The notes beneath the pieces are model-generated. The model saw nothing but the letters and a program-made list of their open reading frames with translations, had not been told where the DNA came from and ran no database searches. Positions 27,601 to 56,265 of a stretch of DNA of 64,000 bases are shown here, in pieces. Within the stretch, counting starts at the first letter, position 1, and each line of letters begins with the position of its first letter. Origin of the DNA: Eledone cirrhosa (Eukaryota). The stretch is from contig OZ024740.1 of NCBI GenBank assembly GCA_964016885.1, forward strand, positions 67,394,001-67,458,000, read 5' to 3'. A program made the translations under genes and the position numbers.

Positions 27601-28159
27601 CGTTAACACCAAGAAAACTGGGATAAATACGAGCCTGATGTGCCGTCGTACTTGGGACATATTTGAATCCTTTTTAGTAATAGTCAGAAATGAATTAGGC
27701 AGACCTGTCTTTCAGCCAGCTATCTCATATTTCCAACATTGTATATCTTCGTTTTGTAAAATATAGTTGACAAATTATGTTTATGTGTAATTGATTAAAT
27801 AAAGATCATCACTGTTGAATCAAATGAAACAAAAAATAATATTAGACATGTAACCAGCAGCAAACCCCTCTGTTTAGTCAATCAACCAGCCAGCCAGAAA
27901 GACGGCCAGTCATCTCATTAGACATAAAGCCAGTCAGCCAAACAACAAGCTACACAGCCAATTACCAGCCACTTAGTGCGCCAGCCAGCCAGTAAACCAA
28001 CCAACCAGATCGTTTGCAAATGTCGACTAAAACTTAGAGAGGCTCTCTCATGATGGAGACTGGGTATGGAGAGCCAGGTGTACAATAAACACGAGTATAG
28101 AGTCGTCCATCTTAGTTTATTGAAGTTTATTGAAGTTATATGTTTTCTGACAGTTACAC

Positions 28160-30374: not shown

Positions 30375-30552
30375 GGGCGGTGGATTGGCAGTATCAGTAG
30401 AGGGTCGGACACCATGCTTTCCAGCATAGTTACGTCCCTTTATGATCTGAGTTCAAATCCCGCCGAGGTTGACTTTGCCTTTCATCCTTACGGGGTCGAT
30501 AAAATAAAGTACCAGTAATGCACTGGCCTTCTGCCTAAAGTAGAAACAATTA
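30375..30552 (+). mobile_element. tRNA-derived SINE, full length, with TSD
   Basis: A/B-box-like head; attattttacc(t/a)tgtta duplicated at ~30357-30374 and ~30549-30565. Confidence 0.9.
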
Positions 30553-30574
30553 TTTTACCATGTTATTATTTGTT

Positions 30575-32721: not shown

Positions 32722-33880
32722 TTCTCTTTAACCTTAGAAACGTTCGTTTTATTAATAAAAAAATCAAAACAAACAAATCTATTTCAAATGGCAACAACGC
32801 TACAAATATTTAAAAAACAGAAAATGAAGGGAAGAGGAAGGGCTTTGGGGCCAGAACAAAATTGGTTGAGAAACTGGGGGTAATGGGCCTAGGGCGCAAT
32901 TTCTCATTGATTTTGATGATGTTGTCAGTGAGGATAATGATTGTGAGGAACATGATGACTATTATGATGATCATGAACATGATGATCAAGATGAGGATGA
33001 AGATGATGATGACGATGATGATGATGTTGTTGTTGATGACAATGATGATGATAATGCTGTTGTTGATGATGATGATGATGATAATGATAATGACGATAGT
33101 GCTAAGATTATTATATCCGACCATCCAACCATCGGATCGATCTATCAACCAACCAGCCAAATAAACAAATGCTGTCTTTCATATAACGCTGATATTTCAA
33201 TTGCATCCCAATAAGTTTTATATAGAAATACTTGTAGTAAGATGTTTTTCACACCCACACTGATAGTAAACAGATGTATCTGTAGGATGCTTTTAGTGTG
33301 TAATAAACCTGTACTTCGTCAAACATTTCACTTTTACAGTACCTAAAGGCTTTTCTGCTGTTATTACTTGTTTTTGATGTAGTTTCTATTTTACTTGTTG
33401 TTGTTGCTGATGCTATTGAAGTTTGTGTGGTAGTGAAGGTGGTGGTGGTGGTGGTTGCTATTGTCCTCCATCTCCTCCTCATCTTCTTCTTCTTCTTCTT
33501 CTTCTTCTTCTTCTTCTTCTTCTTCTTCTTCTTCACTCACTTATTCCTGGAAGGGATTTCCCCCCATTTTCTTACTTTTATTTTATCTTATTTTTCTATT
33601 TAATTTATTTATTTGTTTATTTATTCATTCATTTGTTTATATTATGTTCGTTCACATCTTTCCACCAACATTTTCGGGGGCATCTATATAACAGTTCTTG
33701 AAATTGATACGCCCTATACAAGTGCACTCATTTTGAAATCCTGATATAATCCAGAGATATTTTGAAGCGTTTTAAGTTACATGTTGCAATTCTTTAAAGA
33801 AGACCGGAAAATATTTGGGAGCTGGAGAAAAACTATAATGAAACGGCGTGGGTGGAATAATAATAATAATAATAATAATC

Positions 33881-33919
33881 AGTTTATTTATTAGCCACAA
33901 GGGCCGACATGTAGGGGAT
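33881..33919 (-). mobile_element. ~40-bp Tx1 3'-end stub (B-type)
   Basis: tttattagccacaagggccgacatgtagggga matches the 3' end of the element starting at 40701. Confidence 0.6.
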
Positions 33920-33920
33920 A

Positions 33921-36900
33921 ATTTTTTATTGGCCACAGAGGCTATCACGAAGAAAAACATTATAGACGGCACAGAACAGTACAGGACGATACAAAGTGGG
34001 TTTTGGTCGTGTAAACAGGTTATAACAAAATCGGGCTAGAAATCCAAAAAGAAAAAAAAAAAAAGTTCCCACACAAAACCACACAAAAGACCACGGCCAC
34101 CCTGACCACCAGGGCAAGCACCCTCTCTCACTTTTCCCACTCCTCAGTCTACAGGCGTATACTCAGAGCGGGCCCATTCACTCGGATCTGACTCGCCACT
34201 TTCACCCACCTTTCAACAAACTTACTAGAAGACAGCACTTGTCTCTCCACCCTGATTTTCCTCTTCAAGTGAAACTTGAAAAGGTTAAATAGGGATTGGC
34301 TGGAGAGGAAAGTGTCCGTCTTCAACCCTTTCAATCTTGTCCACCACACAATCTCTTTCGCCATGGCCAACAGGCAGATGAAACTTCCTGCCCTTCCTCC
34401 TCTTTAAAGGAGGATGGTGGGACTATCTGCACAATGGACTCAGTCGATAACCGGATCCGTCCTCCACGCGACAGCAGCTGTTCGACATAGCTCCACAAGT
34501 CAGCAATCCTCGGGCACTGAACGAGTGCGTTCAGGACGGTTTCGTCACTCTGCGCGCATCTCGGACAGGCTCGGCTGACAGCACCTCCGTGCCTGTAGAG
34601 CTTAACCCGAACCGTTAACGCTTCCCGGTAGCACTGCCGGGCCAGGGATTTCTGGAAGTTGTCCATAGGCCCCGGTCTGAAAGTTCTCTTGAAGAGAGCG
34701 AACAGCTGATCGTCTTCGACGCCCAGGGTCTCCCCGAGAACGTCGTCGCCCTTTCCCTCCGCTCGCCCTCTATAGAACGCTGAGGTGGATGTTCCACCGA
34801 TACAAGTGCCCAGTCGGTAGAGGGCGGTTGCGCTTGGAGACATTCCAGTTTCCAAGCGCTATCCCTCGGTCTTTTCCTGATCCAGGACTGCAGCTCCGTC
34901 AAGGAGGCGAGCTGGGGAAAATGCGTCTGGCAAACGGCGGCCACACGTGTTCACCGTCAAGGAAGCACCAGAGATGTCGCAGCCTCAGCGCCAGTTTGCG
35001 CATCATCAGCCACGACATGCCTAGTCCTCTACGCAACGGGTGTTGACAGCAAATGGATCGTTTGATCATGAGAGCGCGTCCCTTCTACAAAAAGCGGAAG
35101 AGAAGGCGCTCCATTTTGGTCAGAGTTGGGCGGGGGCAATGTACGACATTCAGGCGGTAGCAGATGACGGACGCTATGTACACATTCGCCACCTCCGCCC
35201 GACCTTTCAGAGACAGCCTCCTCTCGGCCCATTTCTGGGTTAGAGAGGCCAACCTGCTTGTCACCTTGCTCCAGTTTTTCTCCATCTGGAGGTCCGGACA
35301 GAACCAGACCCCGAACAATTTAACCGTTCCTTCCGTCCAGCGCCCTACGACGGCATGGACTTTCCTCTCCAAGTGCTGAGTTGCAAGCCCACCGACTTTT
35401 CCTGGTTTATCTTTGCTCCTGTCACCGCTTCGTATTCCTTGAGAGCGGTGCCGAGCATCTGGATATGTTTGGTGCTCGTCACCACCACGGTGACGTTATC
35501 GGCGTACGCTGACACGGATCTCCCGCATCCCAGTTCGCGTGGGACCAGCCTCATCGTCTCTACTTTGTGTAGTAAAGGCTCTAGGGCCAGTACGTACAAG
35601 AGGGACGAGAGGGGGCAACCCTGGCGGACCGAGCTCATGATGCTGAAAGGCTGCGACAGGTGACCATTCACCCTCACCATCGAGCTGATGTCGCTGTGCA
35701 TCGCAGCGATCTAGCCCCTAAAAACGGGCCCGATCCGGCCGCCTCGAGGACCGCAGCCAGTTACCGATGGTCGACCCTATTGATCCAAGTTGATCAGGGC
35801 CCCACCCGTACCAGGTTCCTTAACAACCCTCTCTATGATGTATCTAATGAGATGGGGGTTGTCGTGGCTGAATCTATCGGGGATGGCGCATGTCTGCGCC
35901 TTTCTCACCAGATCACCGACGACAAGCGCCAATCTCTTTGCTGACACCTTGGCCAAAATCTTAAACTCGGCGTTTAGTTGAGTTATGGGCCTGAAGTTGT
36001 CTATTACGTTCCCCTTGTTCGGGTTTTTTCTCAGCATCGCCACCGCTCCCCGGCTCACAAAACTGCGAATGCTCCCATTATGCTGCGAGTTGCAGTAGAC
36101 ATCTGGCAAGAGGTGGCCGAACAAGTATGGCATATACGCAGAAAGCTCGTATGGCAGACCATCCAAACCTGGCGATTTACCCCTCGTGCAGTCAGACATC
36201 GCGCCCCGTATTTCACCTGCTGTTATCGGCTTTTCGCAGCATTGCGTTGCGGTCGTCGAGAGCCGAGGCAGTCCGTCGAAGTATGCACCGAAGTCCATAC
36301 ACCGATCCGGCCCTCCGCCGCTCCCGAACAATTGAAAAGCCGCACACATCTGCTCGGATTCGAGCAACATGCGCCCATTTTGATCAGGTAAATACCGAAT
36401 TGTGGACTTGTTGCCACGACGCGCCTCCACTACCCGGGCCCATTGAACGTCTTTCGTCCTCTCGTGTCTTAGAGCACGCGTTCTAGCTCTGACAATGCAG
36501 CCTTCATGCTTTGCGTTGAAGAATTGGAGTGCCAATTTCTCCGCAAGCACGCCGGTTGCGATGCATGTCCTAAACGCCTCTTCTAGTTTTCTAACTAACT
36601 CCCCCTCTACTCTATTTTCCTCTATCACTACTCCTTTTCTAAACCTTATCGATTCTACTCTAATAGCCCTTTTCAGGGCAAACCACCACCTGTTGTTGAC
36701 GATCTCAGCTGTCAACGCACGCTTAACTAATTGGCTAATCTCAGTAAGCTTTGCGCGCCAGGAACTACGCGTTCAGCTTCCAATAGCCGGGCCCTTACTT
36801 ATGGAGTCTATCTAAGTCAACTTCACAGATCACAAATTTGTGGTCCGTGTAGTCGACTACTTTAAATTGTGGACAACCTACACTAGCCTTAACTGTTTCC

Positions 36901-39686
36901 CTAAAAGAATACCCTATCTAAATACGATCTGGATGACCCGATGCGGTTTGTCCATGTACACATTGGCACATTCGGATAATCCATTTTATACCTGTCATAA
37001 CGTCTGAGCAGGTTGTTGAGGCTTTTACACCCTCCTTCCCTGTCTACTAGCCCCACATAATCCCAGCGTGCATCTAAGATACCGTTCCAGTCGCTCACTA
37101 ACACTAAAGAGCGGGACGTTCCAAGAAAGGTCTCTAGATGTCTGAAGAAATCTGGCCGTCCGGCCCCTGTAGAGGCGTAGACGGCTACTAGCCTGAAAGC
37201 ATAGCCTTCGCTGCCGGTCACGTCCAGCACCACCAACTTACCTTCTGAGTCCAGGAAGAGCCCGTATGGCGAGATCCAAGCCTCTCCGAAAAAGCACGAC
37301 AGCCCCTCGCCCGATCCCTGACGGCTGGGAGATGCGTATACATCGTAGCTGCCGAAGATCGGTGCGAAGGCTCTCGCTGATTGCCACCACATCTATGTTT
37401 AGTGACCTGAGGTCGTTGAGCAGGTGACCCTGCTTGCAAGATGACCCCAGGCCACGTACATTTATACTGCCTATTCTAAGTACGGCCATGTTGGATGAGA
37501 AACGGGATAAGGGAGAAAGGATCACTTACATTGATCGTGTGGTGAAGGGACAGTAGAACCGTCCCTTTGGGTGGTCATGGGTGTTTCCAAGAGGATGTTG
37601 GTGTATAACCTCTTGGTAACCGATTCTCTGACGTCTCCAACTGCGTTGGGGATTTTTTGTTTTAAACGTTTGTAATATTCTATTTTGATTTCAATGATGT
37701 TTATCTTTGTCGGGAGTGTTTTTGGTGTCGGTGGGGTGTAGTAGTTTTTTTCTGTGATGTCTGTGTGCTGCTTTATATGTTGTAAGAATTCTTTATTTGA
37801 AATGTTTATGGCTGTGTACTTTTTGTGGGGAGGGGTGATTTAGTTGCTGTTTTCTTGTTGTTGCTGTTGGGTGTGTGTGTTTTGTTGTGTTTGCGATGTT
37901 GGTGAATTTGGTGATGCTGGTGGTGGCGTGGTTGTTGATGGTGATGTTGCTTGTGGTGATCTTTATTTGCCTACGCTTTTGGAGGGTAAAGCTAAGGGGT
38001 TTTTCCTTTTTTGTTTTTTGTGCAGACCGTTTGCCACTTCCCTCCCGCCTCATACTCCATGTCAGATTCGTGGCGTCTGGGAGTGGTATGAGCACCACTG
38101 TTATCGGTGGTGGTAGTGGAGCCCGCTCTGGCGATTTTGCCGCCGGTGTAGCTACTGTGACTGTTGGTGTTGCCGCCACTGCTACCACTGCTTTAGCTGT
38201 GCGTGGCCTTTTAATGGGTGCCACGGACGTTGCCCTCCTACTCACCATGGAAGGGTCTTCTGACTTTTTTGCCTGCCTTGCAATTGGTAGCAGCAGATCA
38301 GGCGTCGGAAGGAGGGCGGCCCTCTTCTTGGCTGTCTTCTGCGGGCAGAAGGCCCTGACGTGACCCTTCTGCCCACAGAGATATCACTTAGGGCGCCTTC
38401 CTTCCAGGCTTATAGGGAGTTGGAGTCCTTCCTCGAAGTCTATGATATCTGGGATGGTCTCGATGCACTCCTGGTCATTCCTATTCCTGACCAGCTCTCT
38501 CTTCCCATTCTCTGTATTGGCAGTATGGTGGTTGTTCTCCTCGATTCCAGCAAGTACAGACACGGCCAGCCAAGGTATGGGAACGTCGGGCGGGACCTGG
38601 GTCACTTTGACCGTCACAATTTTCTGCCCGCAGTAGGGGGACACCAAGACTATCTCTTAACTCTTTAGGGTTTCAAAATAGTGAAACTTCGCCTCTTGGA
38701 TGTGTGTGTGGGGGGGGGGGGGGGGGGGGGTACGTCTACTATGGCGTATTTTTGCCTCGGGTGATGTGGTTTTTACGCGCCCAGATGCACCAGAATGCCT
38801 TTTGTAGTTGAGCCTACTTGGCTCCCTCCACCCGATGTGACATTTTGCTTACAGTGCGGTAAGTCACCGTGCGCATCTGCTGGTCTTTAAAGAAATCGGG
38901 TGGAGGTTTCAGAGAAACTCTATTGTCATTTCTAGTCACCATGGCTCTTGCGACTGCCATCTCCTCCTGCGTGACTAGCACTGTCTCTATATTTCGGTCC
39001 ACACTTGCGAAAGAAGTGGCCCCTATTTCAGCGGCACCATTATTACTGCCGCTACTGCTGCTACTGCTGCTACTGGTCTTGTTGTTGTTGCTGTTGTTAC
39101 TGCTACAAACGGTATTTTTGGTGTTATTGCTGTTATCACTGTAGTAGTTGGTTGTGTTTTTGGTGCCACCGTTGTTGTTGTTTTCGGTGCAATTTCTATT
39201 GTTGCTGTTGGTGTTGTCGTTGTTTATGTTCTTGTTAGTGGTGTTAATATCGTTGTTGCATTAGTTGTCATTTTTTCTGTTGTCTGTATTTTGTTTTTCG
39301 CTGTTATTGTTGTAGTTGGTCGGGTAATGTTTTTGTATTATTGTTCTCAGTGTTGTTGTCTTTGTTCACGATGTTTGTGGTGGTGTTTGTTGTATCAATT
39401 TCTGTAACCCTCCTCTCAACTTTGACGCCGTTGTCACACGACAGCAGACACATTGCTGGGGGGCATAGCTCAGCCATGTTTTTATTTTTATATTTTTAAA
39501 AGTAAAACGTTCAAATATTGTTCAAATATTTGGGCCAAAAGGCCCAAATATTATACTTTCCTCTTCACAGAGCAAAGTCCAAGGGCTTATATCCGTTACA
39601 TAACGAGAACAATTAAACAACAAATAATTATAACAGGTAAATAAACCGACTTACTGGGAGCGAGCAAAAAGACGTCCGAACAGAAC
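33921..39686 (-). mobile_element. Tx1-clade LINE copy A, apparently full length but frameshifted (ORF1 ~39477-37525, ORF2 37489-34149)
   Basis: ORF fragments collinear with the intact copy (LRIGSINVRGL, KSPGLDGLPYEL, VRQGCPLS, YADN, CPRC..ETVL); (TAA)n at both ends. Confidence 0.92.
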
Positions 39687-39716
<30 letters not shown>

Positions 39717-39717
<1 letters not shown>

Positions 39718-39850
39718 TTTTCTTTATTAACCACAAGGGTTTAAATAAAGTAGACATTAAGGACAGTACAGGACAATACAGGACGGTACAAATGGGCATT
39801 TCTGCGTGTAAAAAAAACAGAGGATGAAATAAAATAACAAAGAAAAATAA
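39717..39850 (-). mobile_element. Tx1 3' UTR stub (C-type)
   Basis: Nearly identical to 47102-47245 (ttaaccacaagggttta...aaatgggcatttctgcgtgtaaaa). Confidence 0.85.
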
Positions 39851-39869
39851 TAATAATAAAAATAAAAAT

Positions 39870-40052
39870 AATTGTTTCTACTTTAGGCACAAGGCCAGCA
39901 ATTACCCAGTGCATTACTGGTACTTTATTTTATCGACCCCGTGAGGATGAAAGGCAAAGTCAACCTCGGCGGGATTTGAACTCAGATCATAAAGGGACGT
40001 AACTATGCTGGAAAGCATGGCGTCCGACCCTCTACCGATACTGCCAATCCAC
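39870..40052 (-). mobile_element. tRNA-derived SINE in a TAA tract
   Basis: Family match; taaaaataat on both sides. Confidence 0.9.
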
Positions 40053-40097
40053 TAAAAATAATAATAATAATAATAAAGATAATAATAATTATTATTA

Positions 40098-40690
40098 TCC
40101 GAGTGTAAACACCTAGCCAAGACCCACTATAAGAGCTGGAGACATGATGGGCAGGGTGATCCACTGGCACCTATGCAAAGTAAACAATTTACGACATTCT
40201 GAGAAGAGGTATGAGCATAAGCCAGAAAACGATCAGGTGAAGGTGCTGTGGGATTTTAGGATACAGACGGACAAGAAACTGGAACGCAATAGACCTGACC
40301 TGGTGGTTTTGGACAAGGAAAAAAGATCGTGCCTGATTGTAGATGTGGCCTGCCCATTCGACACGAAAGTGCAAGAGAAGGATAGGGAGAAAATTAACCG
40401 ATACCAGGACTTAAAGTGAGAGGTAAAAAGGATTTGGAACTGCCATGAAGTCAAAGTGCTCCCGATTATCATAGGTGCACTAGGAACTATCTCAAAAAGT
40501 TTCCAGGGATCGTTAAAGAAAATTGGCCCCGCCACGCTTTTTGGAACGCTTCAAAAGGCATGCTTGCTGGAAACAGCAACAACCCTCCGATACGTCCTGA
40601 ATATCTGAGGCTGCAGGTAGTGGCTTGATATTCATTTCAACAAACTTTCCAGTTAACTAACATCAATGACTGAGACTCAAAGAACAATTA
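40098..40690 (+). mobile_element. 5'-truncated R4/Dong-like non-LTR element, RLE domain, (TAA)n tail
   Basis: ECKHLA..YK..RHD, IHWHLCK, LWDFRIQTD....NRPDLVV.DK..C.IVDVACP..KI.RYQDLK, PIIIGALG; in-frame stop at 40419. Confidence 0.85.
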
Positions 40691-40700
40691 TAATAATAAT

Positions 40701-43700
40701 GATTTCATTTATTGGCCACAAGGGCCGATATATAGGGGACAATACAAAAGACTGGGACAGTGGGGTTTTACAGAAAAATCGAGTAAACAATATGAATAAA
40801 CAAAGTAACAATAAAGTAACAAGAAAATTACAAGAAAAAATTCCCCAATAGTGGGGGATGACCACCTAGGGTTCGCTCAGGTAACCCACCAGTCCTGAAC
40901 GACCCAACGCTTCGGAAGCACTTTGGAAAGGCAACCCTCTCCTCTTCAAACTTACCTACCTACAGCCGCATGACCAGAGTAGGCCCACTCACACGGGCCA
41001 TTCTCGCCACATTCACCCACCTTTCAGCAAATGTACTGGGGGGAAGCACTTCTCTCTCCACCCTCACCTTCTTTTCCAAGTGAAACTTGAAAAAGTTGAT
41101 GAGGGATTGGCCGAAGAGAAAAGTGTCTGTCTTCAGTCCTTTCAACTTCGTCCATCATACAACCTCTTTCGCTACTGCCACCATACAGAGGAAAATTGCC
41201 TGCCCTTCCTGGCCAAAAGAAGGCCGCGGGTCGATCTTCACTATGGACTCGGCCGATAGCCGGATCCGTTCTACACGCGACAACAGCTGTTCAACATAAC
41301 TCCACAAGTCAGTAATGCACGGACACTGGACGAGTGCGTGCAGAACGGTTTCGTCGCTCTGCGCGCATCTCGGGCAGCCCCGTCTGACAGCACTTCCGTG
41401 CCTGTAGAGTTTATCTCGAACCGGCAGTGCCCCCCAGTAGCACTGCCAAGCGAGGGATTTTTGGAAATTATCCATCGTTCCCGGCTCGAAAGTCCTCCGG
41501 TACAGACTGGTTAGTTCGACTTCGTTGACTCCCAGAGCCTCTCCGAGTGCGTCGTCGCACTTGCCCACCACTAATCCTTTATAGAACTCGAGAGTGGAAG
41601 TTCCACTGACCGCATTGCCTGCCTGGTAGAGGGCAGTGAGTGCTTGGCAACATTCCAGATGCCAGTCAACGAGTCTCGGTCTCTGTTTGACCCAGGACTG
41701 CGACTCAGTTAAAAAAACGAGCTGCGGAAAGGCCCGTCTGACAACGACGATCACACCTGTTCACCGTTTAGGCAGAATATCTGGAGATGCCGCAGCCTCA
41801 GCGCGTGCCTGCGCATCATTAGTCACGGCATGCCCAGCCCTCCACGTAGAGGGTGCTGGCAGCAGATGGACCGCCTCACCAGCGGAACCTGATCCCTCCA
41901 CAAGAATTTGAAGAGGAGCCGCTCCAAGATGGCGAGGCGGGAACGGGAGCAAGGGAAGATAGTCAGACGGTAGTAGATGACGAACGCGATGTACGCGTTC
42001 GCCACCTCCGCCCGACCTTTCAGTGATAGCTTCATCCCAGCCCATTTCTGGGTGAGACTGAACACACAACCCGTCACCTCGTCACAATTCTTATCCACCT
42101 GGAGGTCTGGCACGAACCAAACCCCTAGCAACTTTACCGCTCCGTCCGTCCAGCGCCTAGCGACGCTGTTGGACGGCATGGACTTGCTTCTCCAGGTGCC
42201 GAGTTGCAAGCCTACTGACTTTTCCGGGTTAAGTTTTGCTCCCGCCAACCTTTCATATTCCTCCAATAATTTGCCGACCACCTCGATTTCTGAGGTGTCC
42301 GACACCATCACTGATGTCGTCCGCATAAACCGACACAGCTTTTCCGCGTCCCGGTTCGAGCGGGATGCCCTGCAACAGCTCCAGCTTCCGCAGTAAAGGC
42401 TCGAGAGTCAATACGTACAGAAGGGAGGAGAGAGGGCACCCTTGACGGACCGATCGGGAGACCTGAAACGGTTCCGGGAGGTGGCCATTAATTTTGACCA
42501 TCGATCAGGTGCCGTTGTGCATTGCAGCGATCCAGATTCTGAAGACGGGGCCGAAGCCAGCCGCCTTGAGGACAGCCTCCAGGTACCGATGGTCGACCCT
42601 ATCGAATGCTTTCGATTGATCTACATTGATCAGAGCCCCACCGAAGCCAGGTTTACACCCTACCCTATCTATGATGTATCGCATTAGGTGGAGGTTGTCG
42701 TGTATGGCCTGGTTGGGATTGCGCATGTTTGCGCCTCCCCAACCAAATGCTCGACGACAAGCGCAAACCTCTTCGCTAAAACCCTGGCCAAAACCTTAGA
42801 CTCTGAGTTGAGGAGATTTGTGGGCCTGAAATTGTCTAATGTGTCTCTCTTGTTCTCGTCTTTCCTTATCAGCGTCACTACGCAGGCTCACAGAACTGGG
42901 AATACTCCCGTTTTGCTCCAAGTTGCAGTAGAGGGCTTCGAGGAGATTGGAGAACAAGTCTGGCATATTTACGTAAAGCTCGAGGGCAGACCATCCAAAC
43001 CGGGTGACTTGCGCCTCATGCAGCCTACAAGGGCATCCTGAATCTCGGTTGAAGTAATTGGCCTTTCGCAGCGCACAGCGTCAGCCGTCGAGATTTGCGG
43101 CAATCCATCGAGGTAGGGACTGAAGTCCGCCACAATCTCTGACCCGCCACTTCCCCCGAACAACCGAGCCAAATGTTGGCGAAAGGCCTCACACATCCTC
43201 TTGGAATCGCTCAGCTCGTGCCCGTCTCGGTCCGTCAAAGACCGAATCGTGGTTTTATTACCACACTGCGCCTCTGCCACGAGGGCCGATCGAACAGCTT
43301 GGGTTCACTCGTTTCTCAGATCACGCTCCTTAGCTCTGAGAATGCAACCTTCGTGTTTCGCATTGAAGAAATGGTCTAATGCCATTCTCGCCGCTAGCAC
43401 ATCAGTTGCAATGTCACTACCAATAGCCTCGTCTAACTTATCTAACAACTCCCCCTCCTTTCTATATTTCACTAATGCTACTTCTTTCCTAAACTCTATC
43501 GACATTACTCTAATCTCTCTTTTGAGAGCCCCCCACCATCTATTGTTGACGACTCGCCCTGTCAACTTTTTTTTAACTAAATTGTTGACCTGGTCCCTGT
43601 AAGACTTACGTGCCGGAAATGACATGTTTAGCTTCCAGTAACCAGATCCTAACCTACGCGTCTTATCTAGGTCAACCATACAGATCACAAACTTGTGATC

Positions 43701-46257: not shown

Positions 46258-46272
46258 AATAATAATAATAAT

Positions 46273-46451
46273 AATTTTTTCTACTTTTGGCACAAGCAAA
46301 TTACCCAGTACATTACTGCTACTTCATTTTATCGACCCCGTAAGGATGAAAGGCAAAGTTAACCTCGGCGCGATTTGAACTCAGAATGGCAAGGGGCGTA
46401 ACTCTAAGCGTCATAGCATGGCGTCCGACACTCTATCGATACTGCCAATCC
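46273..46451 (-). mobile_element. tRNA-derived SINE between TAA tracts
   Basis: Family match. Confidence 0.88.
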
Positions 46452-46467
46452 ATAATAATAATAATAA

Positions 46468-47049
46468 TATATACATTGGATAATGTGTAAGCATTTTCAC
46501 CTGCCCCATCAAAAGAATTGGTAGGAGCATCAACCACCTCCCATACTTGAAAAAGATCACATCTCAATCTTGTGGAACTTTAGCATCCAAACAGACCGAA
46601 AAATAGATGCAAATAGACCTGATATAATACTGAAGGACTTTAAGAAGAGGGTATGCCTGCTAATTGATATGTCCGTTCCAATAGACAAGAATGTATCTAT
46701 AAAAACTTTTGAAAAATTGAGCAAGTATAAGGACCTGGAGATAGAAATTGCAAAAATCTGGAAATTGAGAACTAAAACAATACCAGTGGTTGTAGGAGCT
46801 CTAGGAATGATACCTAAGGGGTCTAATGACTACTTATCGCAAATCCCAGGAAACCCGCGTATAGGAGAAATACAAAAGATAGTCTTAATGGGAACTGCCC
46901 ATATACTAAGGAAGATTCTGTACATCACAAGTCTAAACACGAAAGATGCATGTGTGTGTATGTATGTTCTTTCTTGAACATGGCGGACTTTGCTGTCTCT
47001 TGAGGTCACTGGTTGTGACTCGTATGAACATAAAGCAAGATAAATGCAA

Positions 47050-47052
<3 letters not shown>
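46468..47052 (+). mobile_element. 5'-truncated R4/Dong-like element, RLE domain, (TAA)n tail
   Basis: YIHWIMCK, LWNFSIQTDRKIDANRPDIILKD...CLLIDMSVP..EKLSKYKDLEIE...PVVVGALG...LMGTAHILRK. Confidence 0.88.
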
Positions 47053-47103
<51 letters not shown>

Positions 47104-47371
47104 TTTATTTATTAACCACAAGGGTTTACATAAAGTAGACATTAAGGACAGTGCAGGACAATGAAGGACGGTACAAATGGGCATTTCTGCGTGTAAAAAA
47201 AAAAAAAAAAAAAAAAACAGAGGATGTAACAAAAATAACAATGAAAATAACAATGAAAAATTCCCCAATAGGGGGGAGACTTCGGAGGGACATTTGTGGA
47301 GAAAGCCCAGTAAAAAGCCACAATGACTGACCACCAAGGCAAGTGCCCTCTCCCAGTTTTCCACCTTTAGT

Positions 47372-50300
47372 TTACAGATATATACTCAGAGTCGGCCCAT
47401 TCACTCGGGCCATTCTTGCTTCTCTCACCCATCTTTCAACAAAATGCTGGGAAGAGAGCACTTCCCTATCTACTCTGATTTTCCTTTTCAAATGAAATTT
47501 GAAAAAGTCAATCAGAGCATCACCGAAGGGGTAAGTGCTCGTCTTCAGCCCTTTCAAACGTGTCCACCATACTATCTCTTTCGCCATGGCCACCAGGCAG
47601 ATAAAAACTGCCTGCTCTTCCCGGCTAAAGGAGGAGGGCGGGGCAATCCTCACGATGGACTCAGATGATAGCCGGATCCGTCCTAAACGCGACAGCAGGT
47701 GTTCGACATAAACCCACAAGTCAGCAATTTTCGGACACTGGACGAGTGCGTGCAAGACGGTTTCGTCGCCCTGCGCGCATCTCGGACATGCCCGGCTGAC
47801 GGCACCTCCATGCCTGTAGAGTTTATCCCGAACTGGCAAGGCTCCTCGGTAGCACTGCCAGGCCAGAGATTTCTGGAAGTTGTCCATAGGCCCTGGCCCG
47901 AAAGTTCTTCCGAAGAGATTGGCTAGTTGATTTTCGTCGACGCCTAGAGTTTCCCCAAGTACGTCGTCGCTCTTCCCCTCCACTAATCCTCTATAGAACG
48001 CCGAGGTGGAGTTTCCACCGATCACATTGCCCGATTGGTCGAGGGCTGTGAGCGCCTGAAGACATTCCAGTCTCCAGGCGCTCCCTCTCGGTCTTCGCTT
48101 GACCCAGGACTGCAGCTCCGTCAAGGAAACGAGCAGGGGAAAAACGCGTCTAGCAAACGGCGACCACACCTGATCACCGTCGAGGAAGAGGTGGAGATGT
48201 CGTAGCCTGAGCGCGTGCCTGCGCATCATCAGCCACGGCATGCCCAGCCCTCCACGTAGCGGGTGTTGACAACAGATGGACCGCCTGACCATCGGAGCAC
48301 GTCCCTTCCACAAAAAGCGAAAGAGCAAACGCTCCAGCGCAGTCAGGCGAGGCTTAGGACAAGGTACGACGGTTAGGCGGTAGCAGATGACAGACGCGAT
48401 GTACGCGTTAGCCACCTCCGCTCGACCTTTCAGGGATAGCTTCCTCTCCGCCCATTTCTGGGTGAGAGAAGCCACCCTGCTCGTCACCTCGTCCCAGTTT
48501 TTGTCCGTCTGGAGGTCCGGACCGAACCAGACCCCTAGCAATTTAACCGGTCCGTCCGTCCAGCGCCCGACGACGCTGTTGGACGGCATGGACCTGTCTC
48601 TCCAGGTGCCGAGCTGCAGGCCCACTGACTTTTCCTGGTTGATCATTGCTCCTGTCACCGCTTCGTATTCTCTTAGTGTAGTGCCGATCGCCTCGATGTG
48701 TTTGGCGTTCGACACCACTACGGTGACATCGTCCGCATATGCTGACACGGATCTTCCGCATCCTAGTTCGCGCGGGACTCCCCTCAACGTCTCCAGTTTG
48801 TGCAGTAATGGCTCGAGCGTCAATACGTACAAGAGGGACGAGAGGGGACATCCTTGGCGGACCGAGCGCATGATGTTGAACGGTTCCGACAGGTGACCGT
48901 TCACTCTCACCACAGAGCAGATGTCGCTGTGCATGGCAGCGATCCAGCCTCTGAAGACGGGCCCAAAGCCAGCCGCCCTCAGGACTGCCGCTAGGTAACG
49001 ATGGTCGACCCTATCGAAAGCTTTCGACTGATCTAAATTGATCAAGGACCCACCCGTGCCAGGTTCCCTAGCTACCCTCTCTACGATGTATCGCATGAGG
49101 TGGAGGTTGTCGTGGATGGATCTGTCGGGAATGGCGCATGTCTGCGCCTCTCCCACCAGACCACCAACGACAAGCGCCAACCTCTTTGCTAGCACCTTGG
49201 CCAAAATCTTAAACTCTGTGTTTAGCAGAGTTATGGGCCGGAAATTGTCTATGTTATCCCCCTTGTTCGGATCCTTTCTCAGCAGTGCCACCGCTCCTCG
49301 GCTCACAGAACTGGGAATTCTCCCGTTCTGTTGCCAGTTGCAGTAGACGTCCGCCAAGAGGCCTCCGAACAAGTCTGGCATCTGTACGTAAAGTTCATAG
49401 GGCAGACCATCCAAACCAGGCGATTTACCCATTGTGCAGCCAGTCATTGCCTCCCGTACTTCAGCGGCTGTTATCGGCTTTTCGCAACACCTCTCCTCAG
49501 TGGCCGAGAGCCGCGGCAGTCCGTCGAGGTAGACACTAAAGTCCATCCCTCTACCCGGCCCCCCGCTGCCCCCGAACAGCTGAGCGAAGTGTCGCTGAAA
49601 AGCTTCACACATTTGCCCGGGATCGAGTAGCATGCGCCCGTCGTGGTCCACCAAAGACCGGATCGTGGCTTTGTTGCCACGACGCGCCTCCGCCACTCGG
49701 GCCCATTGAACGGCTTTCGTCCCCTCGTGTCTGAGAGCACGCACCCTAGCTCTGACAACGCAGCCTTCGTGCTTTGCATTGAAGAATTGGTCAAGAGCCA
49801 ATTTCGCCGCAAGCACGTCGGTCGCAATGCCTTTGCTAAGCGCCTCGTCTAATTTTCTAACTAGTTCTCCCTCTGCTCTATTTTTCTCTATTGCTAAAGC
49901 CTTACTAAACCTAATCGATTCTATTCTAATCGCTCTTTTCAGAGCAAACCACCACTTGTTGTTGACGATGGCCCCCGTCAACGCCCGCTTAACTAGTTCG
50001 CTAATCCGGTCTCTGTAGGCCTTGCGCGCTGGTAAGGACGCGTTTAGCTTCCAGTAGCCGGGTCCTCGTCTATGAAGCCTATCTAAGTCAAGCACACAGG
50101 TCACGAATTTGTGGTCCGTGTAGCTGACTATCTTGAATTGTGGACAGCCTATGCTAGACCTATCTATTTCCCTACAAAATACTCTATCTAGATATGATCT
50201 GGATGACCCTATGCGGTTTGTCCAAGTCCACATTGGCACATTCGGGAAATCCAATCGGTACCTGTCAGACAGTTCAAAACGCCTGAGCAGGTTGGTGAGG

Positions 50301-50791
50301 CTCTTGCACCCTCCACCCCTATCCGCTAATCCCACACAGTCCCAGCGTGCATCTAAGATCCCGTTCCAGTCGCCCACTAACACTAAAGAGCGGGACGTTC
50401 CAAGAAAGGTCTCCAGAAGCCGGAAGAAATCAGGCCGCCCTGCTCCTGTCGGGGCATAGACGGCCACTAGCCTGAAAGCTTGCCCGTCTCCGCTGGTCAC
50501 GTCCAGCACTACCAGCTTACCCTCTGGGTCCAGGAAGATGGCCCGTATGGCGAGATCCAAACCTCTCCGAAAAAGCACAGCAACTCCTCCACCCGATCCA
50601 GGACGGCTGGGAGATGCGTACACATCGTAGCCGCCGAAGATCGGTGCGAAGGCCCGTGCTTCGAAGATTCTGGTCTCGCTGATGGCCACTACATCTATGT
50701 TTAGTGACCTGAGGTCGTTGAGCAGGTGACCCTGCTTCCATGACGACCCCAAGCCACGCGCATTTATGCTGCCTATTCTGAGTGAGGTCAT
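47372..50791 (-). CDS. Tx1 ORF2: APE-like endonuclease, reverse transcriptase and zf-RVT (1139 aa)
   Basis: GSINARGL, AISET, GDWNG, SYLDRVF, TDH; KSPGLDGLPYE, FRPITLLN.EFKIL, LDQSKAFDRVDH, VRQGCPLS, YADD; CPRC...ETVLHALVQC. Confidence 0.95.
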   Translation of the reverse strand: MTSLRIGSINARGLGSSWKQGHLLNDLRSLNIDVVAISETRIFEARAFAPIFGGYDVYASPSRPGSGGGVAVLFRRGLDLAIRAIFLDPEGKLVVLDVTSGDGQAFRLVAVYAPTGAGRPDFFRLLETFLGTSRSLVLVGDWNGILDARWDCVGLADRGGGCKSLTNLLRRFELSDRYRLDFPNVPMWTWTNRIGSSRSYLDRVFCREIDRSSIGCPQFKIVSYTDHKFVTCVLDLDRLHRRGPGYWKLNASLPARKAYRDRISELVKRALTGAIVNNKWWFALKRAIRIESIRFSKALAIEKNRAEGELVRKLDEALSKGIATDVLAAKLALDQFFNAKHEGCVVRARVRALRHEGTKAVQWARVAEARRGNKATIRSLVDHDGRMLLDPGQMCEAFQRHFAQLFGGSGGPGRGMDFSVYLDGLPRLSATEERCCEKPITAAEVREAMTGCTMGKSPGLDGLPYELYVQMPDLFGGLLADVYCNWQQNGRIPSSVSRGAVALLRKDPNKGDNIDNFRPITLLNTEFKILAKVLAKRLALVVGGLVGEAQTCAIPDRSIHDNLHLMRYIVERVAREPGTGGSLINLDQSKAFDRVDHRYLAAVLRAAGFGPVFRGWIAAMHSDICSVVRVNGHLSEPFNIMRSVRQGCPLSSLLYVLTLEPLLHKLETLRGVPRELGCGRSVSAYADDVTVVVSNAKHIEAIGTTLREYEAVTGAMINQEKSVGLQLGTWRDRSMPSNSVVGRWTDGPVKLLGVWFGPDLQTDKNWDEVTSRVASLTQKWAERKLSLKGRAEVANAYIASVICYRLTVVPCPKPRLTALERLLFRFLWKGRAPMVRRSICCQHPLRGGLGMPWLMMRRHALRLRHLHLFLDGDQVWSPFARRVFPLLVSLTELQSWVKRRPRGSAWRLECLQALTALDQSGNVIGGNSTSAFYRGLVEGKSDDVLGETLGVDENQLANLFGRTFGPGPMDNFQKSLAWQCYRGALPVRDKLYRHGGAVSRACPRCAQGDETVLHALVQCPKIADLWVYVEHLLSRLGRIRLSSESIVRIAPPSSFSREEQAVFICLVAMAKEIVWWTRLKGLKTSTYPFGDALIDFFKFHLKRKIRVDREVLSSQHFVERWVREARMARVNGPTLSIYL

Positions 50792-50826
50792 GTTTAAAAT
50801 AGAGTGGAAAAGATGGGAAAGACCAC

Positions 50827-52923
50827 TTACCGTACTTTTCGTAGAGGAGGGATGGTTTTTACATCCCTTTTCACTTGATCGTCTGGTGAAGGGACCGTTG
50901 AATCGTCCCTTCGGCTGGTCGTCGGCTCTTCTAAGAGAATGTCTGAGTATACTCTTCGATTGATGGTTCCTCCTAGGTCCCTGAAATCACCAACTGCGTT
51001 GGGGAATTTCGTTTTAATATTTGTGTATTGTTTCTGTGCTATTTTTAGCAGTCTTATGTTAGTTGGCGTTTTGATTGGTGCTGGTATTATGTAGTCCTGT
51101 TGTGAAATGTCTGTGTGTTCAATTATGTAAGTCATTAGTTTCTTGTTGTGTGTATTTATTGCCGTGCATTTGTTTTTCTGGGGGTGGGGTGTGGTTCTGC
51201 TATTTTCTTGTCGTTGTTGCTGGGTGTGTGTGTTTTGTTGTTGTGTTTGCGATGTTGGTGCTTGTGGTGGTGGTGTTGAAGGTGTTGTTGGCGGTGGGGT
51301 TGTCGCCGGTGGTGATGGTGGCGCTAGTGTGGGTGGTGATGGTGTTGGTGTTGTTGCTGCTGTGGGTCTCTTTGCAGTAGACTTTACCCTTTTCTCATTT
51401 CTTTCCTCCCTTTTCAAAGGCGACGATGCGCTGCTTCTGCGTTTGTGCCTTCTTACGACCTTTTGCCATCTCTCTCCCACCTCACACTCCATGTCTGATT
51501 CTGTGAGGTCGGGGAGGGGTACCAACTCCACTCTTTCACTTGTTGTTGTTGGTGATGTTTGCACTGGAGTCTCTGTTGCAGCTGCATTTGGTATTGCTGT
51601 TGTTGTTGTTAGTATTTCCACTGCTGCTGCTGTTTTTGATTTCCGTGGAGTGGGTATGGGTGCCACGGGCCTATCGTTCCTGGTTGCCGCTTGTCCTGTT
51701 GCTGGTAGCCGTGGAGCCGGATTCGGAAGGAGGGGGGTTTTCTCCTTTCTCGGGGTCTTCTCGTTGCAGAAGGCCCTGAGGTGAGTCTTCGATCCACAGC
51801 GAAAGCATTTCGGGCGTTTGCCCTCAACACTTATGGGCAGTTGAGTGCCGTTATCGAAGTCTATCACATCCGGGATAGCTTCGATGCACTCCTGGTTGGT
51901 TTGGATTAGCATCTCAATGGAGGAGCCGACCCAATCTTCTCTTACTTTTTTCTGTACTTGCAGTACAGTTGTTTTGTCCTCGATTCCGACGAGGACAGAC
52001 GCGGCCAGCCAAGAAGGGGTCATTCCGGGGGGGACGTGGGTCAGTTTGACCCTCACAATTTTTTGCCCACAGTAGGAGGGCACCAACACCATTTCCTCGC
52101 TCCTTAGGGTCACTGCTGATTGGGCCTTTGCCTCCTGGGGTGTGGCAAAAAGTACGTCTACGGTGGAATATTTTTTGCCTCGGGTGATGTGCGTTTTCCG
52201 CTGCCACACAGACCCCAAGGCTTTTTGTATTTGGGCCTCTGTGGCTCTTTCCACCCTACGGGATTTTGCACTTACTGTACGGTACGTGACCGTACAGTGC
52301 TCTTGGGTTTCGAAAAAATTTTTCGCTGCCTTGCAGATTGCTCGGTATCCGTTCTTTGTCACCATCTTCTTCGCTTCCTCTAATTCCTCATTTGTTATGA
52401 GGATTGTTTCCAAGTTTTTCGCAATACCTGCAAATGAGATTGGTTTTTCTCTGCTGTTGTTGTTGTCGTCAGAGCTGCTGGTACTTTTGTTGTTGCTGCA
52501 GGTACTACGACTACTGCCTCCGCCGCTGTTGCTGTGGTTGTTGTTGGTGTTGCTGCTGCTAATGCTGTTGTTGTTTATGCTGCTGGTGATGCTGTTGCGG
52601 CTGCTACTGTTGTTTTCATTGTCACTGTTGCTGTTGTTATTACGGCTGCTACTGCTATTATTCCTGACGTCAGACGAATGAACTGGGTTTTCGTATTTCC
52701 CGCACACCTGTTTCGTCGCTGTCGTCGTCGTCGTGGAGAAACCTTGCACGCTTTGCACGAGACTTTTCTTTTCTTTCGTCACTTGCGAAAGAGAAGGGAG
52801 GGAGAGAGACACATTTAAAGAAGGGAGGGAGAGAGACAATCTTCTCTCTGCTGTAGTGATGATTGAGGAAGAAGAAGACGGAATGAGTGGGAGTGACGTA
52901 TGAAATTTCTTTTTTGTAGCCAT
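50827..52923 (-). CDS. Tx1 ORF1: gag-like nucleic-acid-binding protein with CCHC knuckle (698 aa)
   Basis: CFRCGSKTHLRAFC; low-complexity S/N and P/T linkers; immediately upstream of ORF2. Confidence 0.9.
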   Translation of the reverse strand: MATKKKFHTSLPLIPSSSSSIITTAERRLSLSLPSLNVSLSLPSLSQVTKEKKSLVQSVQGFSTTTTTATKQVCGKYENPVHSSDVRNNSSSSRNNNSNSDNENNSSSRNSITSSINNNSISSSNTNNNHSNSGGGSSRSTCSNNKSTSSSDDNNNSREKPISFAGIAKNLETILITNEELEEAKKMVTKNGYRAICKAAKNFFETQEHCTVTYRTVSAKSRRVERATEAQIQKALGSVWQRKTHITRGKKYSTVDVLFATPQEAKAQSAVTLRSEEMVLVPSYCGQKIVRVKLTHVPPGMTPSWLAASVLVGIEDKTTVLQVQKKVREDWVGSSIEMLIQTNQECIEAIPDVIDFDNGTQLPISVEGKRPKCFRCGSKTHLRAFCNEKTPRKEKTPLLPNPAPRLPATGQAATRNDRPVAPIPTPRKSKTAAAVEILTTTTAIPNAAATETPVQTSPTTTSERVELVPLPDLTESDMECEVGERWQKVVRRHKRRSSASSPLKREERNEKRVKSTAKRPTAATTPTPSPPTLAPPSPPATTPPPTTPSTPPPQAPTSQTQQQNTHTQQQRQENSRTTPHPQKNKCTAINTHNKKLMTYIIEHTDISQQDYIIPAPIKTPTNIRLLKIAQKQYTNIKTKFPNAVGDFRDLGGTINRRVYSDILLEEPTTSRRDDSTVPSPDDQVKRDVKTIPPLRKVR

Positions 52924-53138
52924 GTTGTTTTTTGTTTAAAATGAAATTTTGGGTACAAAACCCCAATAACTGGTTATTTAACCCCGAAGGGCCAAATAAC
53001 GGACAGAAAGACCCCTCTCACGAGGAGGAGGGTGTCTTTATCAACAATTTGGTTCAAGTTTTAAACAATTTACAATTGTTTTAACGGTTAAAAATTACTA
53101 TACCTTACAGAGCCGAGCCTCCGTCAACCATGGCATTC

Positions 53139-53169
<31 letters not shown>

Positions 53170-54740
53170 TCTTCTTTATTGACCACGAGGGTTGTCATAT
53201 AGTATCAAATTAAGGACAGCCCAGGACGGTACAGAACTGTACAAATGGGCATATAATGAAAAATAACAATAACAAGGGAAATGAGGAAAAAAAAGAAAAC
53301 AAAGGAAAACTACCCAATAGGGGATGGAGACTTCCGAGGGACATTCGTGATGAAAGCTCATTAAAAAAGCCACGGTAACCCTGACCACCAGGGAAAGTAC
53401 CTTCTCCCAGTTTTCCACCGCCAATTTACTGCCGTATACTCAGAGCAGGCCCATTCACTCGGGCCATGCTTGCCTCGCTCACCATCTTTTAACAAATTGC
53501 TGGGAAGAGATCACATCCCTCTCCACCCTGTTTTTCCTTTTCAAATGAAATTTGAAAAAAGTTAATCAGGGCATAACTGAAGAGGTAAGTGCTCGTCTTT
53601 AGCCCTTTCAAACGCGTCCACCACACGACCTCTTTCACAATGGCTTCCTGGCTAAAGGAAAACGGCGTGGCAGTCCTCACAATGGACTCAGCTGATAGCT
53701 GGATCCGTCATACTCGCGACAGCAGGTGTTCAACATAAACCCACAAGTCAGCAATTCTTGGACATTGGACAAGTGCGTGCAGGACGGTTTCGTAGCCCTG
53801 CGCATCTCGGACAGCCCGGCTGACGGTACTTTCATGCCTGTAGAGTTTATCCCGAACTGGCAAAGCTTCCCGGTAGCACTGCCAGGCGAGGATTTTCTGG
53901 AAGTTCTCCATGGGCCCCGCCCCGAAAGTTCTTCCGAAGAGATTGGCTAATTGACTTTCGTCGACGCCCAGAGTCTCCCCAAAGACATCGTCGCTCTTTT
54001 CCTCCACCTCCACTAACCCTCTATAGAACACCAAGGCGGATTTTCCACCGATTGCAAGGCCCGATTGCTAGAGGGCCGTGAGTGCCTGAAGACATTCCAA
54101 TCTCCAAGCATTCCCTCTCGGTTTTCGCTTGACTCAGGACTGAAGCTCCGTCAAGGAGACGAGCTGGTGGAAAACGCATCTAGCAAACGGCGACCACACC
54201 TGATAACCTTCGAGGAAGATGTGGAGATGCCGTAGCCTGAGCTCATGTTTGCGCATCATCAGCCATGGCATGCCTAGCCCTCCACGTAGCGGGTGTTGAC
54301 AGCAAATGGACCGCCTGACAATCTGAGCGCGTCCCTTCTACAAAAAGTAGACAGTGGAGGCTTAGGACACGGCATGACGATCAGTAGATGACAGACGCAA
54401 TGTACGCGTTCTCCACCTCCACTAGACCTTCATTGATAACCTTCTTTCCGACCAATTCCGTGTGGTAGGGGCAACTTGTTCGTTACATCGTCCCAGCTCT
54501 TGTCCACCAGGATGGCTGGTCCGAACTAGACCACAAGCAACTTCATTCATTCATCCGACAAAATCTGCCGGCACGGTTGCATGCATTTGTCTTTCCAAGT
54601 GTTGAGCTGCAAATCCACCGACTATCCATTTTCAGTTCTGCTCCCGCTTCATTTCATATTCCCCTAAGGATGTGCCGAGCACTTGATTTCCGAGATGTTC
54701 GACACCATCACGCTGATGTCGTCCACATATGTCGCATTTG
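53170..54740 (-). mobile_element. Tx1-clade LINE copy D, 5'-truncated near the YADD motif, degenerate
   Basis: 3' UTR and ORF2 C-terminus collinear with copy C. Confidence 0.9.
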
Positions 54741-54764
54741 TCATAAATAAAAAGTAAATAAAAA

Positions 54765-54837
54765 TAATTGTTTCTACTTTTGGCACATGGCCAGCAATTA
54801 TCCAATGCATTACTGGTACTTTATTCTATCGACCTCG
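54765..54837 (-). mobile_element. 5'-truncated SINE with TSD
   Basis: aaaagtaaataaaaataat on both sides. Confidence 0.8.
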
Positions 54838-54924
54838 AAAAAGTAAATAAAAATAATAAAATAAATTTTACAAGATCATTTAATAAATAAAGTATTCTGA
54901 CAGAAACCCTCCCCCACCCCAGGT

Positions 54925-56265
54925 ACCAAGAACGTGTCTGGAGTTCTCCTCTCTTCAGAATGGTACATCCGCGTGAGATGGAAAGAATATTTTGCTGATC
55001 TTCTAAACCCGATCACAACAGCATCTTCTGATGTGCACGTGGTGCTTCTGGGAGCGGTAACTAATCTCTCAGAAGCTGAAGTCACAAGAGTTAAAGAGCT
55101 CAAATATAGCAAAGCCGCTGGGAAAGAAGAAATCTGGCCCAAGATGTTAAAGACCTTAGAAAAGGTATTCTCTGGCTGACTCAAGTGTGCTGGCTGGCCT
55201 GGACCTCTGCAAAGGCACCTAAGCAATGGTAATTGGGAGTGATAATTCTAAATTTCACAAAAGTGTACACGAGAGATTGCTCCAAATACAGAAAGATCTC
55301 CCTGTTAAGCCTCCCGGTAAAGTCTATGCTCAGTGGTTGACAAAGAATGCAGCGTGATTATCTAGTCCAAGCTATCTGATGAACAATGTGTGTTTCGCCC
55401 CAGACAGAGCACAGCCGACCAAATATTCACACTGTGGCAGGTATTCGAAAAATCGTGGGAGTATTCCCAAGAAGTATATTCTTCTTTTGTCGACCTTGAA
55501 AAGGCACATGACCTCGTTCTGCAGATTGAGGGTAAGCTTCTTGCAGCCCTGTTGGCTGTGTACGAATGCCATAGAATTCGAGTTAGGATAAATGGTGTTA
55601 AATTGAAACCATTCAGTATGGATGTAGGGTACCGCTAAGGACACGTACTGCCATCTATCCTGTTCATTATTGACATAAACAGGATTTACATGGAAGTGGT
55701 GTCATGACTGGCGGGTGTATAATTAGTCGGCTGGAGTTTGCAGTCTACATGGCGTTATTTAACTCATGAGAAGATGATCTTCGACTTGCACTTGATATGT
55801 TTGAATGCCGAGTGATGCATGACTGGAATGAAAATCAGTGCTGCGAAAACTGAGACACTCGTCCACTGAAGAAAACCTGCGGAGTGCACTCTACATGTGA
55901 ATGGATTTCCACTGAAGAAGGTAGAGAAGTTTGAGTATCTCAGGGTCGTGTTCACGAGTGATGGAAAGCATGAGGCTGAATTCAGTGCAACAATTGCAGG
56001 AGCTGTTGCAGTAATATGCCAGTTTCAGTATTCAGTAGCCACAAGAAGGGAGGTAGGTGTTAAATGCCAAACAGGCTATCTTCAATACGGTATTCATGCC
56101 AACCCTTACCTATGATCATGAATCTTGGATAACGACCGAAAGAATACGATCGCAAATTCAAGAGGCCCAAATGGTATTCCTTCGAAGATCACAGCTCCAA
56201 TACTATGGGCATGCGGTTAGAATGTCTCAGAAAAGAAACGCTGGACAGATTTTATCCGGCAAATA
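54925..56265 (+). pseudogene. Degenerate RTE-clade LINE RT region
   Basis: RWKEYFADLLNP, KAAG.EEI.PKMLK, FRP..STADQIFTL.Q..EKSWEY, FVDLEKAHD, VEKFEYL, L.Y..ESW, LQYYGH..RM. Confidence 0.82.

Follow-up and report, generated by a model that had tools for sequence, protein, structure and literature searches.

A cluster of long interspersed elements (LINEs) on the minus strand of a 64,000-nt stretch of the Eledone cirrhosa genome (OZ024740.1; this whole stretch is the window, to which coordinates refer) very probably consists of independent insertions of a young, abundant L1/Tx1-type lineage whose copies lie in one orientation in ATT repeats genome-wide, likely because it targets ATTAT and (ATT)n sites. 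Directly observed are the statistics of the junctions, target duplications that begin with ATT, the absence of a tail at sites without an array, near-identical sister copies dispersed elsewhere, and clustering on the same strand. The interest lies in the specificity of the family as a whole, in the sharing of one microsatellite from two sides and in a likely partnership with a short interspersed element (SINE); the locus itself is typical of the family.

The 5' ends of the lineage are of three types, A/B and C, both present in the window (Table 1), and E, a third type found beside C copies. The first 30 matches to each 5' motif along contig C1 were taken as the full-length set. At least three sense-strand ATT units are found directly upstream of all 90 junctions (30/30 A/B-type, 30/30 C-type and 30/30 E-type), with medians of 7, 8 and 13 units, respectively. 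At least three units just upstream occur at 0.096% of background positions (396,000 positions, sampled as 10-kb stretches at 20 even intervals along contig C1). The register is also constant, as the array ends exactly in ATT at 85 of the 90 junctions and the remaining five are one base off in the same register. Another 39 copies, on six contigs, were picked for an atypical 3' flank; 22 of them are full-length, and all 22 have an upstream array. The original prediction, made from the window alone, had proposed strand-specific (TTA)n targeting, to be abandoned if 5' junctions lay mostly in non-TAA sequence; none of these full-length junctions does.

The sequence upstream of the 90 full-length copies is a SINE end in 9 cases and in 16 matches loci that contain pieces of LINEs with a restriction-like endonuclease (RLE). 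In 33 cases the copy directly follows a Tx1 3' end (31 by pattern and 2 by eye). The same holds for 2 of 13 background arrays, numbers too small to compare. No ribozyme or known RNA family was found at the 5' ends, where Rfam gave only sub-threshold microRNA and snoRNA matches and a hand-written hepatitis delta virus (HDV) ribozyme descriptor was applied to six ends.

The association with ATT is also found in truncated copies. Tracing from 3' ends (the first 100 3'-end matches) gave 91 copies, 39 of which were neither full-length C-type nor E-type. Six of the 39 were removed (one full-length B-type copy, two duplicates and three abutting another Tx1 body; no array is present at any of them). 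At least three ATT units lie within 25 nt upstream of 15 of the 33 distinct truncated junctions, or of 16 when L066, whose array was absorbed by the alignment, is counted (45-48%). This rule is satisfied by 0.25% of background windows, an approximately 200-fold enrichment. It is these junctions that serve to tell a target from a 5' leader.

Imperfect sites are informative about the 3' end. At five of them (L075, L081, L091, L110 and L115), target duplications of 7-17 bp begin with ATT or CATT, and the 3' end carries no added (ATT)n, the single ATT there being the start of the duplication. The LINE lineage has no obligatory tail. Given the ATT-led duplications and the lack of an added tail at non-array sites, ATT is the target and not only a tail. 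It had been claimed that each insertion preserves or regenerates its target. Insertion does preserve the array, which it splits, but non-array sites gain no new one, so regeneration is unsupported. Genome-wide, (ATT)4 follows 6,719 of 9,489 C/E-type 3' ends. Separately, two truncated copies of different length (L074 and L115) occupy the same ATTATT position in a shared repeated host sequence.

The copies in the window differ more from each other than from copies elsewhere. Copy C matches dispersed copies at 99% identity and copies A, B and D at 75-78%, copy B is 93-95% identical to dispersed copies megabases away, and copies A and D are 86-87% and ~81% identical, respectively, to the nearest sampled copies. 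Junction contexts differ at each boundary of the cluster. Judging from these identities, the copies arrived separately over a long time, and because C is near-identical to dispersed copies and distant from its neighbours, the segmental duplication that the original prediction had named as its alternative is refuted. Same-strand clustering is not confined to the window. Among 100 consecutive 3' ends on C1, a neighbour within 12 kb was found on the same strand for 49 and on the opposite strand for 7, whereas random placement predicts 2.6 (maximum 10 in 1,000 trials). Clusters of at least three copies number 10 in 45.6 Mb of C1. The notion of a microsatellite turned into an insertion sink therefore describes the whole family, but the window locus is not special.

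A SINE and a second class of LINEs at the same sites

A SINE found in the window has 25 matches in the 200 kb of background sequence, corresponding to several hundred thousand copies genome-wide if this density is typical. LINE and SINE 3' ends have in common a CTTGT loop ~12 nt before the junction, with the same spacing to it. The stems closing this loop (AACC/GGTT in C, GGCC/GGCC in B and TGGC/GCCA in the SINE) show compensatory changes between families. Stem pairs 1-3 are kept in 98-100 of 102 LINE ends and 79-82 of 87 SINE ends, and pair 4 in 89 and 45, respectively, counted as copies and not as independent events. The 3' flank begins with ATTAT in 16 of 18 SINE copies from the background stretches and the window, and target duplications of 12-19 bp are present in 11 of the 18. 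Given the shared hairpin and the ATTAT-led duplications, we consider it probable that the machinery of the LINE lineage moves this abundant SINE, with the lineage as a candidate partner (the comparison of ends covers this LINE clade). The SINE resembles, and may belong to, the octopus CORE-SINEs OR1 and OR2. The latter are named in PMC4758252 and PMC4824008.

The plus-strand LINE fragments in the window encode RLE motifs and have TAA on their sense strand. The 3' ends of their relatives lie in own-sense (TAA)n in 21 of 21 cases for one family and, under a strict rule, in 27 of 46 for the other. These fragments are presumably Dong/R4-like, given their motifs and TAA ends. RLE LINEs use the same arrays as the ATT-associated LINE, from the other strand, and SINEs share these arrays as well. 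The minus-strand copies are not Dong/R4, as they have an apurinic-endonuclease-like (APE) domain and ATT on the sense strand. A further LINE family, with RTE-like C-terminal peptides and on the opposite strand, has its (GAA)n end right at ATT arrays (L302, L304, L305, L310, L318, L322, L324 and L329); it is possibly (GAA)n-tailed or (GAA)n-targeting.

Mechanism and alternative explanations

By analogy with target-primed reverse transcription, the ORF2 (second open reading frame) endonuclease would nick the TAA strand, leaving a ...ATAAT 3'-OH. The 3' end of the RNA may be recognised through the small CUUGU-loop hairpin ~12 nt upstream, with read-through AUU pairing with the nicked end, and the other strand would be cut ~11-19 bp downstream. 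The array would be split into two ATT-bearing parts of the same sense, one offering a fresh target beside the previous copy, which would account for head-to-tail growth of clusters. Arrays are present at 90/90 full-length but 16/33 truncated junctions, and the register is fixed. Both facts suggest, and we slightly favour the idea, that AUU lies upstream in full-length RNA, where it would anneal to the target and set the register of the 5' junction.

Several observations weigh against targeting of ATT arrays by the LINE. Two copies in the full-length set come from the window itself, two share a flank (L047/L048), and searching by motif is biased towards copies that are well preserved. Fewer than three ATT units are found upstream of 17 of the 33 truncated junctions, a looser specificity than in full-length copies. 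At ~12 truncated junctions the neighbour is (CTT)n, an RLE fragment or unrelated DNA and there is no duplication, possibly owing to a later insertion or deletion. A perfect (ATT)4 is lacking at 29% of C/E-type 3' ends. One ATT is followed by (CTT)3 or (GTT)3 at 39 of the 9,489 ends. Of the full-length copies, 22 continue at the 3' end into (CTT)n or (GTT)n, and in 21 of these that sequence has no duplicate on the 5' side. Among 30 downstream flanks examined for this test, 8 belong to one family with RTE-like C-terminal peptides and 3 are RLE ends. Since many of these flanks are the ends of other, opposite-strand elements, the test is confounded and does not separate a target from a 5' leader. 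Finally, the hairpin has only 3-4 bp and does not form when the SINE end is folded to its predicted minimum energy, and SINEs, unlike the LINE, are mostly found at short ATTAT sites, a single one of 18 lying in (ATT)4.

One further explanation refines the targeting of ATTAT plus (ATT)n and does not replace it, and we give it somewhat less than an even chance: the endonuclease would read only a short ATTAT core, and the strong bias of the LINE towards arrays would come from selection or from pairing between RNA and DNA at the two ends. A short preferred target, TT/AAAA, is seen in mammalian L1. A short core agrees with the duplications and short ATTAT/ATT sites seen for the SINE and for several truncated copies, as it does with the (ATT)4 arrays at 71% of LINE 3' ends against 1 of 18 SINEs, and the upstream arrays at all full-length but only 16 of 33 truncated junctions. 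Truncated copies, however, cannot carry a 5' leader and are still ~200-fold enriched in arrays, which 3' pairing alone could explain. A wider proposal, which we hold more tentatively still, makes the lineage a main engine of octopod repeat landscapes: an ATTAT-preferring enzyme would move the SINE to short sites, AUU pairing at both RNA ends would steer the enzyme's own copies, about half of them full length, into arrays, and these arrays would be shared with Dong/R4-like elements from the opposite strand.

Other explanations dispense with a target. If ATT were a tail and 5' leader copied from the element's own RNA, insertion would be non-specific and the arrays element-made. The register, fixed at 85 of the 90 full-length junctions, and the lack of an array at about half of the truncated junctions would fit, but the 45-48% of truncated junctions with upstream arrays against 0.25%, the single ATT that starts the duplication at imperfect sites, and same-strand clustering, which requires a pre-existing oriented target, make this very unlikely. 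Insertion could instead be nearly random, with copies outside ATT arrays or repeat-dense regions lost to selection. Passive accumulation of this sort is one explanation put forward for Waldo-A/B of Drosophila beside CA repeats (PMC3812793); here it is more improbable again, because the youngest copies (98-99% identical, many intact) have the same junctions and selection would not fix strand and register. Tandem or segmental duplication of the cluster has a negligible chance of being correct. Duplicated flanks do exist elsewhere (L047/L048, L110/L111 and L363/L364), but neighbours in the window are 70-78% identical and less alike than dispersed copies, and every boundary has its own context; segmental duplication was ruled out for the window cluster. 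We therefore retain independent, ATT-directed insertion as the best explanation.

Composition of the window and of the family

The cluster (33856-54857) comprises three full-length L1/Tx1-type LINEs, one truncated copy of 1.6 kb and two 3' stubs. Every one of them lies on the minus strand, with (ATT)n at the joints (Table 1). The four large copies and two stubs of the original prediction are confirmed, and its coordinates hold, among them the 5' ends at 39686, 46257 and 53138, which begin directly after ATT arrays. The predicted presence of at least three diverged subfamilies is supported by ORF2 pairwise identities of only 70-78% among window copies, and the copies are indeed in different states of decay, both ORFs being open in copy C while stops and frameshifts interrupt those of the other three. 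The description as a head-to-tail pile-up of Tx1 copies holds for the common strand of the LINEs, but this is not a pure array, as two plus-strand RLE fragments and three SINEs had been overlooked: C and B are separated by an RLE fragment and a SINE, and B and A by an RLE fragment, a SINE and a stub.

Table 1. Features of the minus-strand cluster and the elements interspersed in it
Feature	Position	Strand	Similarity or domains
(ATT)8 array, 3' end of cluster	33856-33879	-	
B-type LINE 3' stub, 43 bp, hairpin and AATAAA	33880-33922	-	84% to B 3' end
Copy A, full-length, decayed, 5,762 bp; B-type 5' untranslated region (5'UTR) on C-like body	33925-39686	-	5'UTR 77% to B, ORF2 78% to C
(ATT)10 array at copy A 5' junction	39687-39716	-	
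C-type LINE 3' stub, 5' boundary approximate	39717-39845	-	86% to C 3' end
tRNA-headed SINE, A/B-box-like motifs, shared 3' hairpin at end, ATTAT-led target duplication	39873-40052	-	
ATT-rich array, SINE/RLE fragment boundary	40053-40097	-	
RLE-type (presumably Dong/R4-like) LINE 3' fragment, 593 bp, (TAA)n at own-sense 3' end	40098-40690	+	RPD..D..K motif
(ATT)3	between copy B 3' end and RLE fragment 40098-40690	-	
Copy B, full-length, decayed, 5,558 bp	40700-46257	-	93-95% to dispersed copies
(ATT)5-6 array at copy B 5' junction, also SINE 3' flank	46258-46274	-	
SINE copy	46275-46451	-	
Second RLE-type LINE family, 3' fragment, 585 bp, between (TAA)5 and (TAA)16	46468-47052	+	
(ATT)16 array common to 3' ends of copy C and RLE fragment	47053-47101	-	
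Copy C, full-length, young, 6,037 bp, both ORFs open	47102-53138	-	99% to dispersed copies
Copy C ORF2, 1139 aa: APE endonuclease, reverse transcriptase (RT; YADD), zf-RVT	47372-50791	-	Pfam PF03372, PF00078, PF13966
Copy C ORF1, 698 aa, one CCHC knuckle, low-complexity tracts	50827-52923	-	no Pfam match
(ATT)10 array, copy D 3' end/copy C 5' end	53139-53169	-	
Copy D, 5'-truncated, decayed, 5' boundary approximate	53170 to ~54740	-	77% to C, ~81% to nearest sampled copies
SINE 3' fragment (54769-54837) between two 20-bp ATTAT-led target duplication copies	54749-54857	-	

Copy C ORF2 has human L1 ORF2p as its best PDB match (E 1e-51, 179 bits), whereas R2 reaches at most 80 bits. It has the features of the L1 superfamily, namely an N-terminal APE endonuclease, an RT and a C-terminal cysteine-rich region with catalytic motifs present, and family copies show the 5' truncations and target-site duplications typical of that superfamily. 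ORF1 has one C-x2-C-x4-H-x4-C knuckle, and a CCHC zinc knuckle in ORF1 is a feature of the Tx1 clade. Among named proteins, one from Argonauta hians is closest (74% identity across the RT region). A quick tree of 70 RT regions groups the lineage with Argonauta (support 99), then with a clade at 50% identity (100), then with turtle and fish L1-type proteins (95). The lineage is provisionally assigned to the Tx1 clade on its architecture together with this tree, which contains no labelled Tx1 family. The sister group of the octopod lineage, at ~50% RT identity, is a large clade of proteins from metagenome assemblies (P0004-P0088), with clusters of up to 732 members. Relatives from one metagenome scan are only 25-42% identical, another scan gave no matches, and ESM Atlas matches are unnamed RT clusters only.

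Family size was estimated by sequence-pattern searches over the whole 3.0-Gb genome, in which reversed-pattern controls gave 0. There are 514 A/B-type, 2,903 C-type (at most one mismatch) and 2,281 E-type 5' ends. C and E 5' ends together amount to ~55% of the C/E-type 3' ends, which is an approximation only, since the search patterns were not equally strict. Both ORFs are open in 8 of 23 near-complete C copies. E-type copies are 91-96% identical to C in ORF2 but have a different 5'UTR and ORF1, and copy A has a B-type 5'UTR on a C-like body, so 5' modules have been exchanged. Two 3-kb copies on C1 (L120 and L124, near 34.78 and 36.01 Mb) have a common 5' junction to a TAACCC-like, telomere-like repeat and are possibly an amplified chimeric or non-autonomous derivative. 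Two E-type copies on different contigs (L333 and L349) have the same internal start directly after a SINE 3' end, a possible SINE-headed chimera or duplication.

Elsewhere in the window, older decayed relatives of the same LINE are found on the plus strand (26158-30130). Their 3' end, near 30110, leads into TTA repeats and, past these, a SINE in the same orientation (30380-30556); together they form a second small cluster of opposite polarity. Tandem SINE pieces with short TAA arrays in between lie at 63260-63863. Another repeat is present as two oppositely oriented copies, 72% identical (25026-25531 and 55015-55519), and a 535-bp CTAC-type minisatellite lies at 22977-23511.

Comparison with known systems

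Microsatellite-targeting Tx1 elements include Kibi in (TC)n, Koshi in (TTC)n and crocodilian families in (TTCC)n/(TTTC)n (PMC4494074). The Eledone lineage is likewise an L1/Tx1-type LINE with APE and RT that lies inside a microsatellite, and it is far above the level used in PMC4494074 to define specificity (the target in >20% of flanks). It differs in having sense-strand (ATT)n, not a pyrimidine repeat, and a mollusc host, and the likeness drawn here is one of architecture and of target type. It is also set apart by its ~10,000 copies, about half of which reach the 5' end. Insertion of the Kibi/Koshi kind in (TC)n/(TTC)n is not the pattern here: of the 9,489 3' ends, 39 continue after one ATT into (CTT)3 or (GTT)3, and many of these 39 abut the ends of other elements. 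Mutsu and Dewa are further target-specific Tx1 families (5S rDNA and tRNA arrays, respectively).

No Tx1 family in ATT/TAA repeats was found in the literature searched, including the available parts of PMC3747384 and PMC8869645; Repbase, Dfam, Kojima and Fujiwara 2004 and the supplements of PMC4494074 (crocodilian targets) lie outside that search, and earlier cataloguing is possible. Targeting elements of this kind are already known, and ATT is a target not previously found for Tx1-type LINEs in this literature. If the reading is correct, a new target is added to their list.

The uniform full-length 5' junctions recall R2, in which junctions are uniform when the RNA carries upstream target sequence (PMC3774820); here, with no HDV-like ribozyme found at the ends searched, the 5' leader is inferred. 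In octopus, L1-Tx1 and Dong-R4 elements have been catalogued as abundant and active (PMC13282606, PMC8967140), with 13 recently active L1-Tx1 families and 421 insertions in Octopus vulgaris (PMC13282606). By description, O. vulgaris L1-Tx1 is likely the same lineage as the Eledone LINE. The available parts of PMC13282606 give neither a target-site analysis nor a SINE partner for L1-Tx1, and those of PMC8967140 give no target analysis. SINEs make up 11.6% of the O. vulgaris genome (PMC13282606), and the lineage is a candidate partner for this expansion. The situation resembles that of crocodilian Tx1-Mar and SINEU, where movement of the SINE by Tx1 was inferred from a shared target preference (PMC4494074); the Eledone SINE differs in its tRNA-like head, the 3' hairpin in common with the LINE and its short ATTAT sites.

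The mechanisms of microsatellite targeting have been called not well understood (PMC3812793). The contrast between the SINE at short ATTAT sites and the LINE in arrays makes the shares of the nuclease and of RNA-DNA pairing testable, and intact young copies are a ready substrate for separating the two effects. The closest parallel in target is Dong, of the R4 lineage, which targets TAA microsatellites in silkworm, mosquito and snail (PMC3812793, PMC3774820). The microsatellite is the same, but the Eledone lineage has an APE and ATT in the sense strand, whereas Dong has a restriction-like endonuclease and TAA in the sense strand. If the targeting proposed here is correct, two unrelated endonucleases converge on one microsatellite, from opposite strands, in a single genome.

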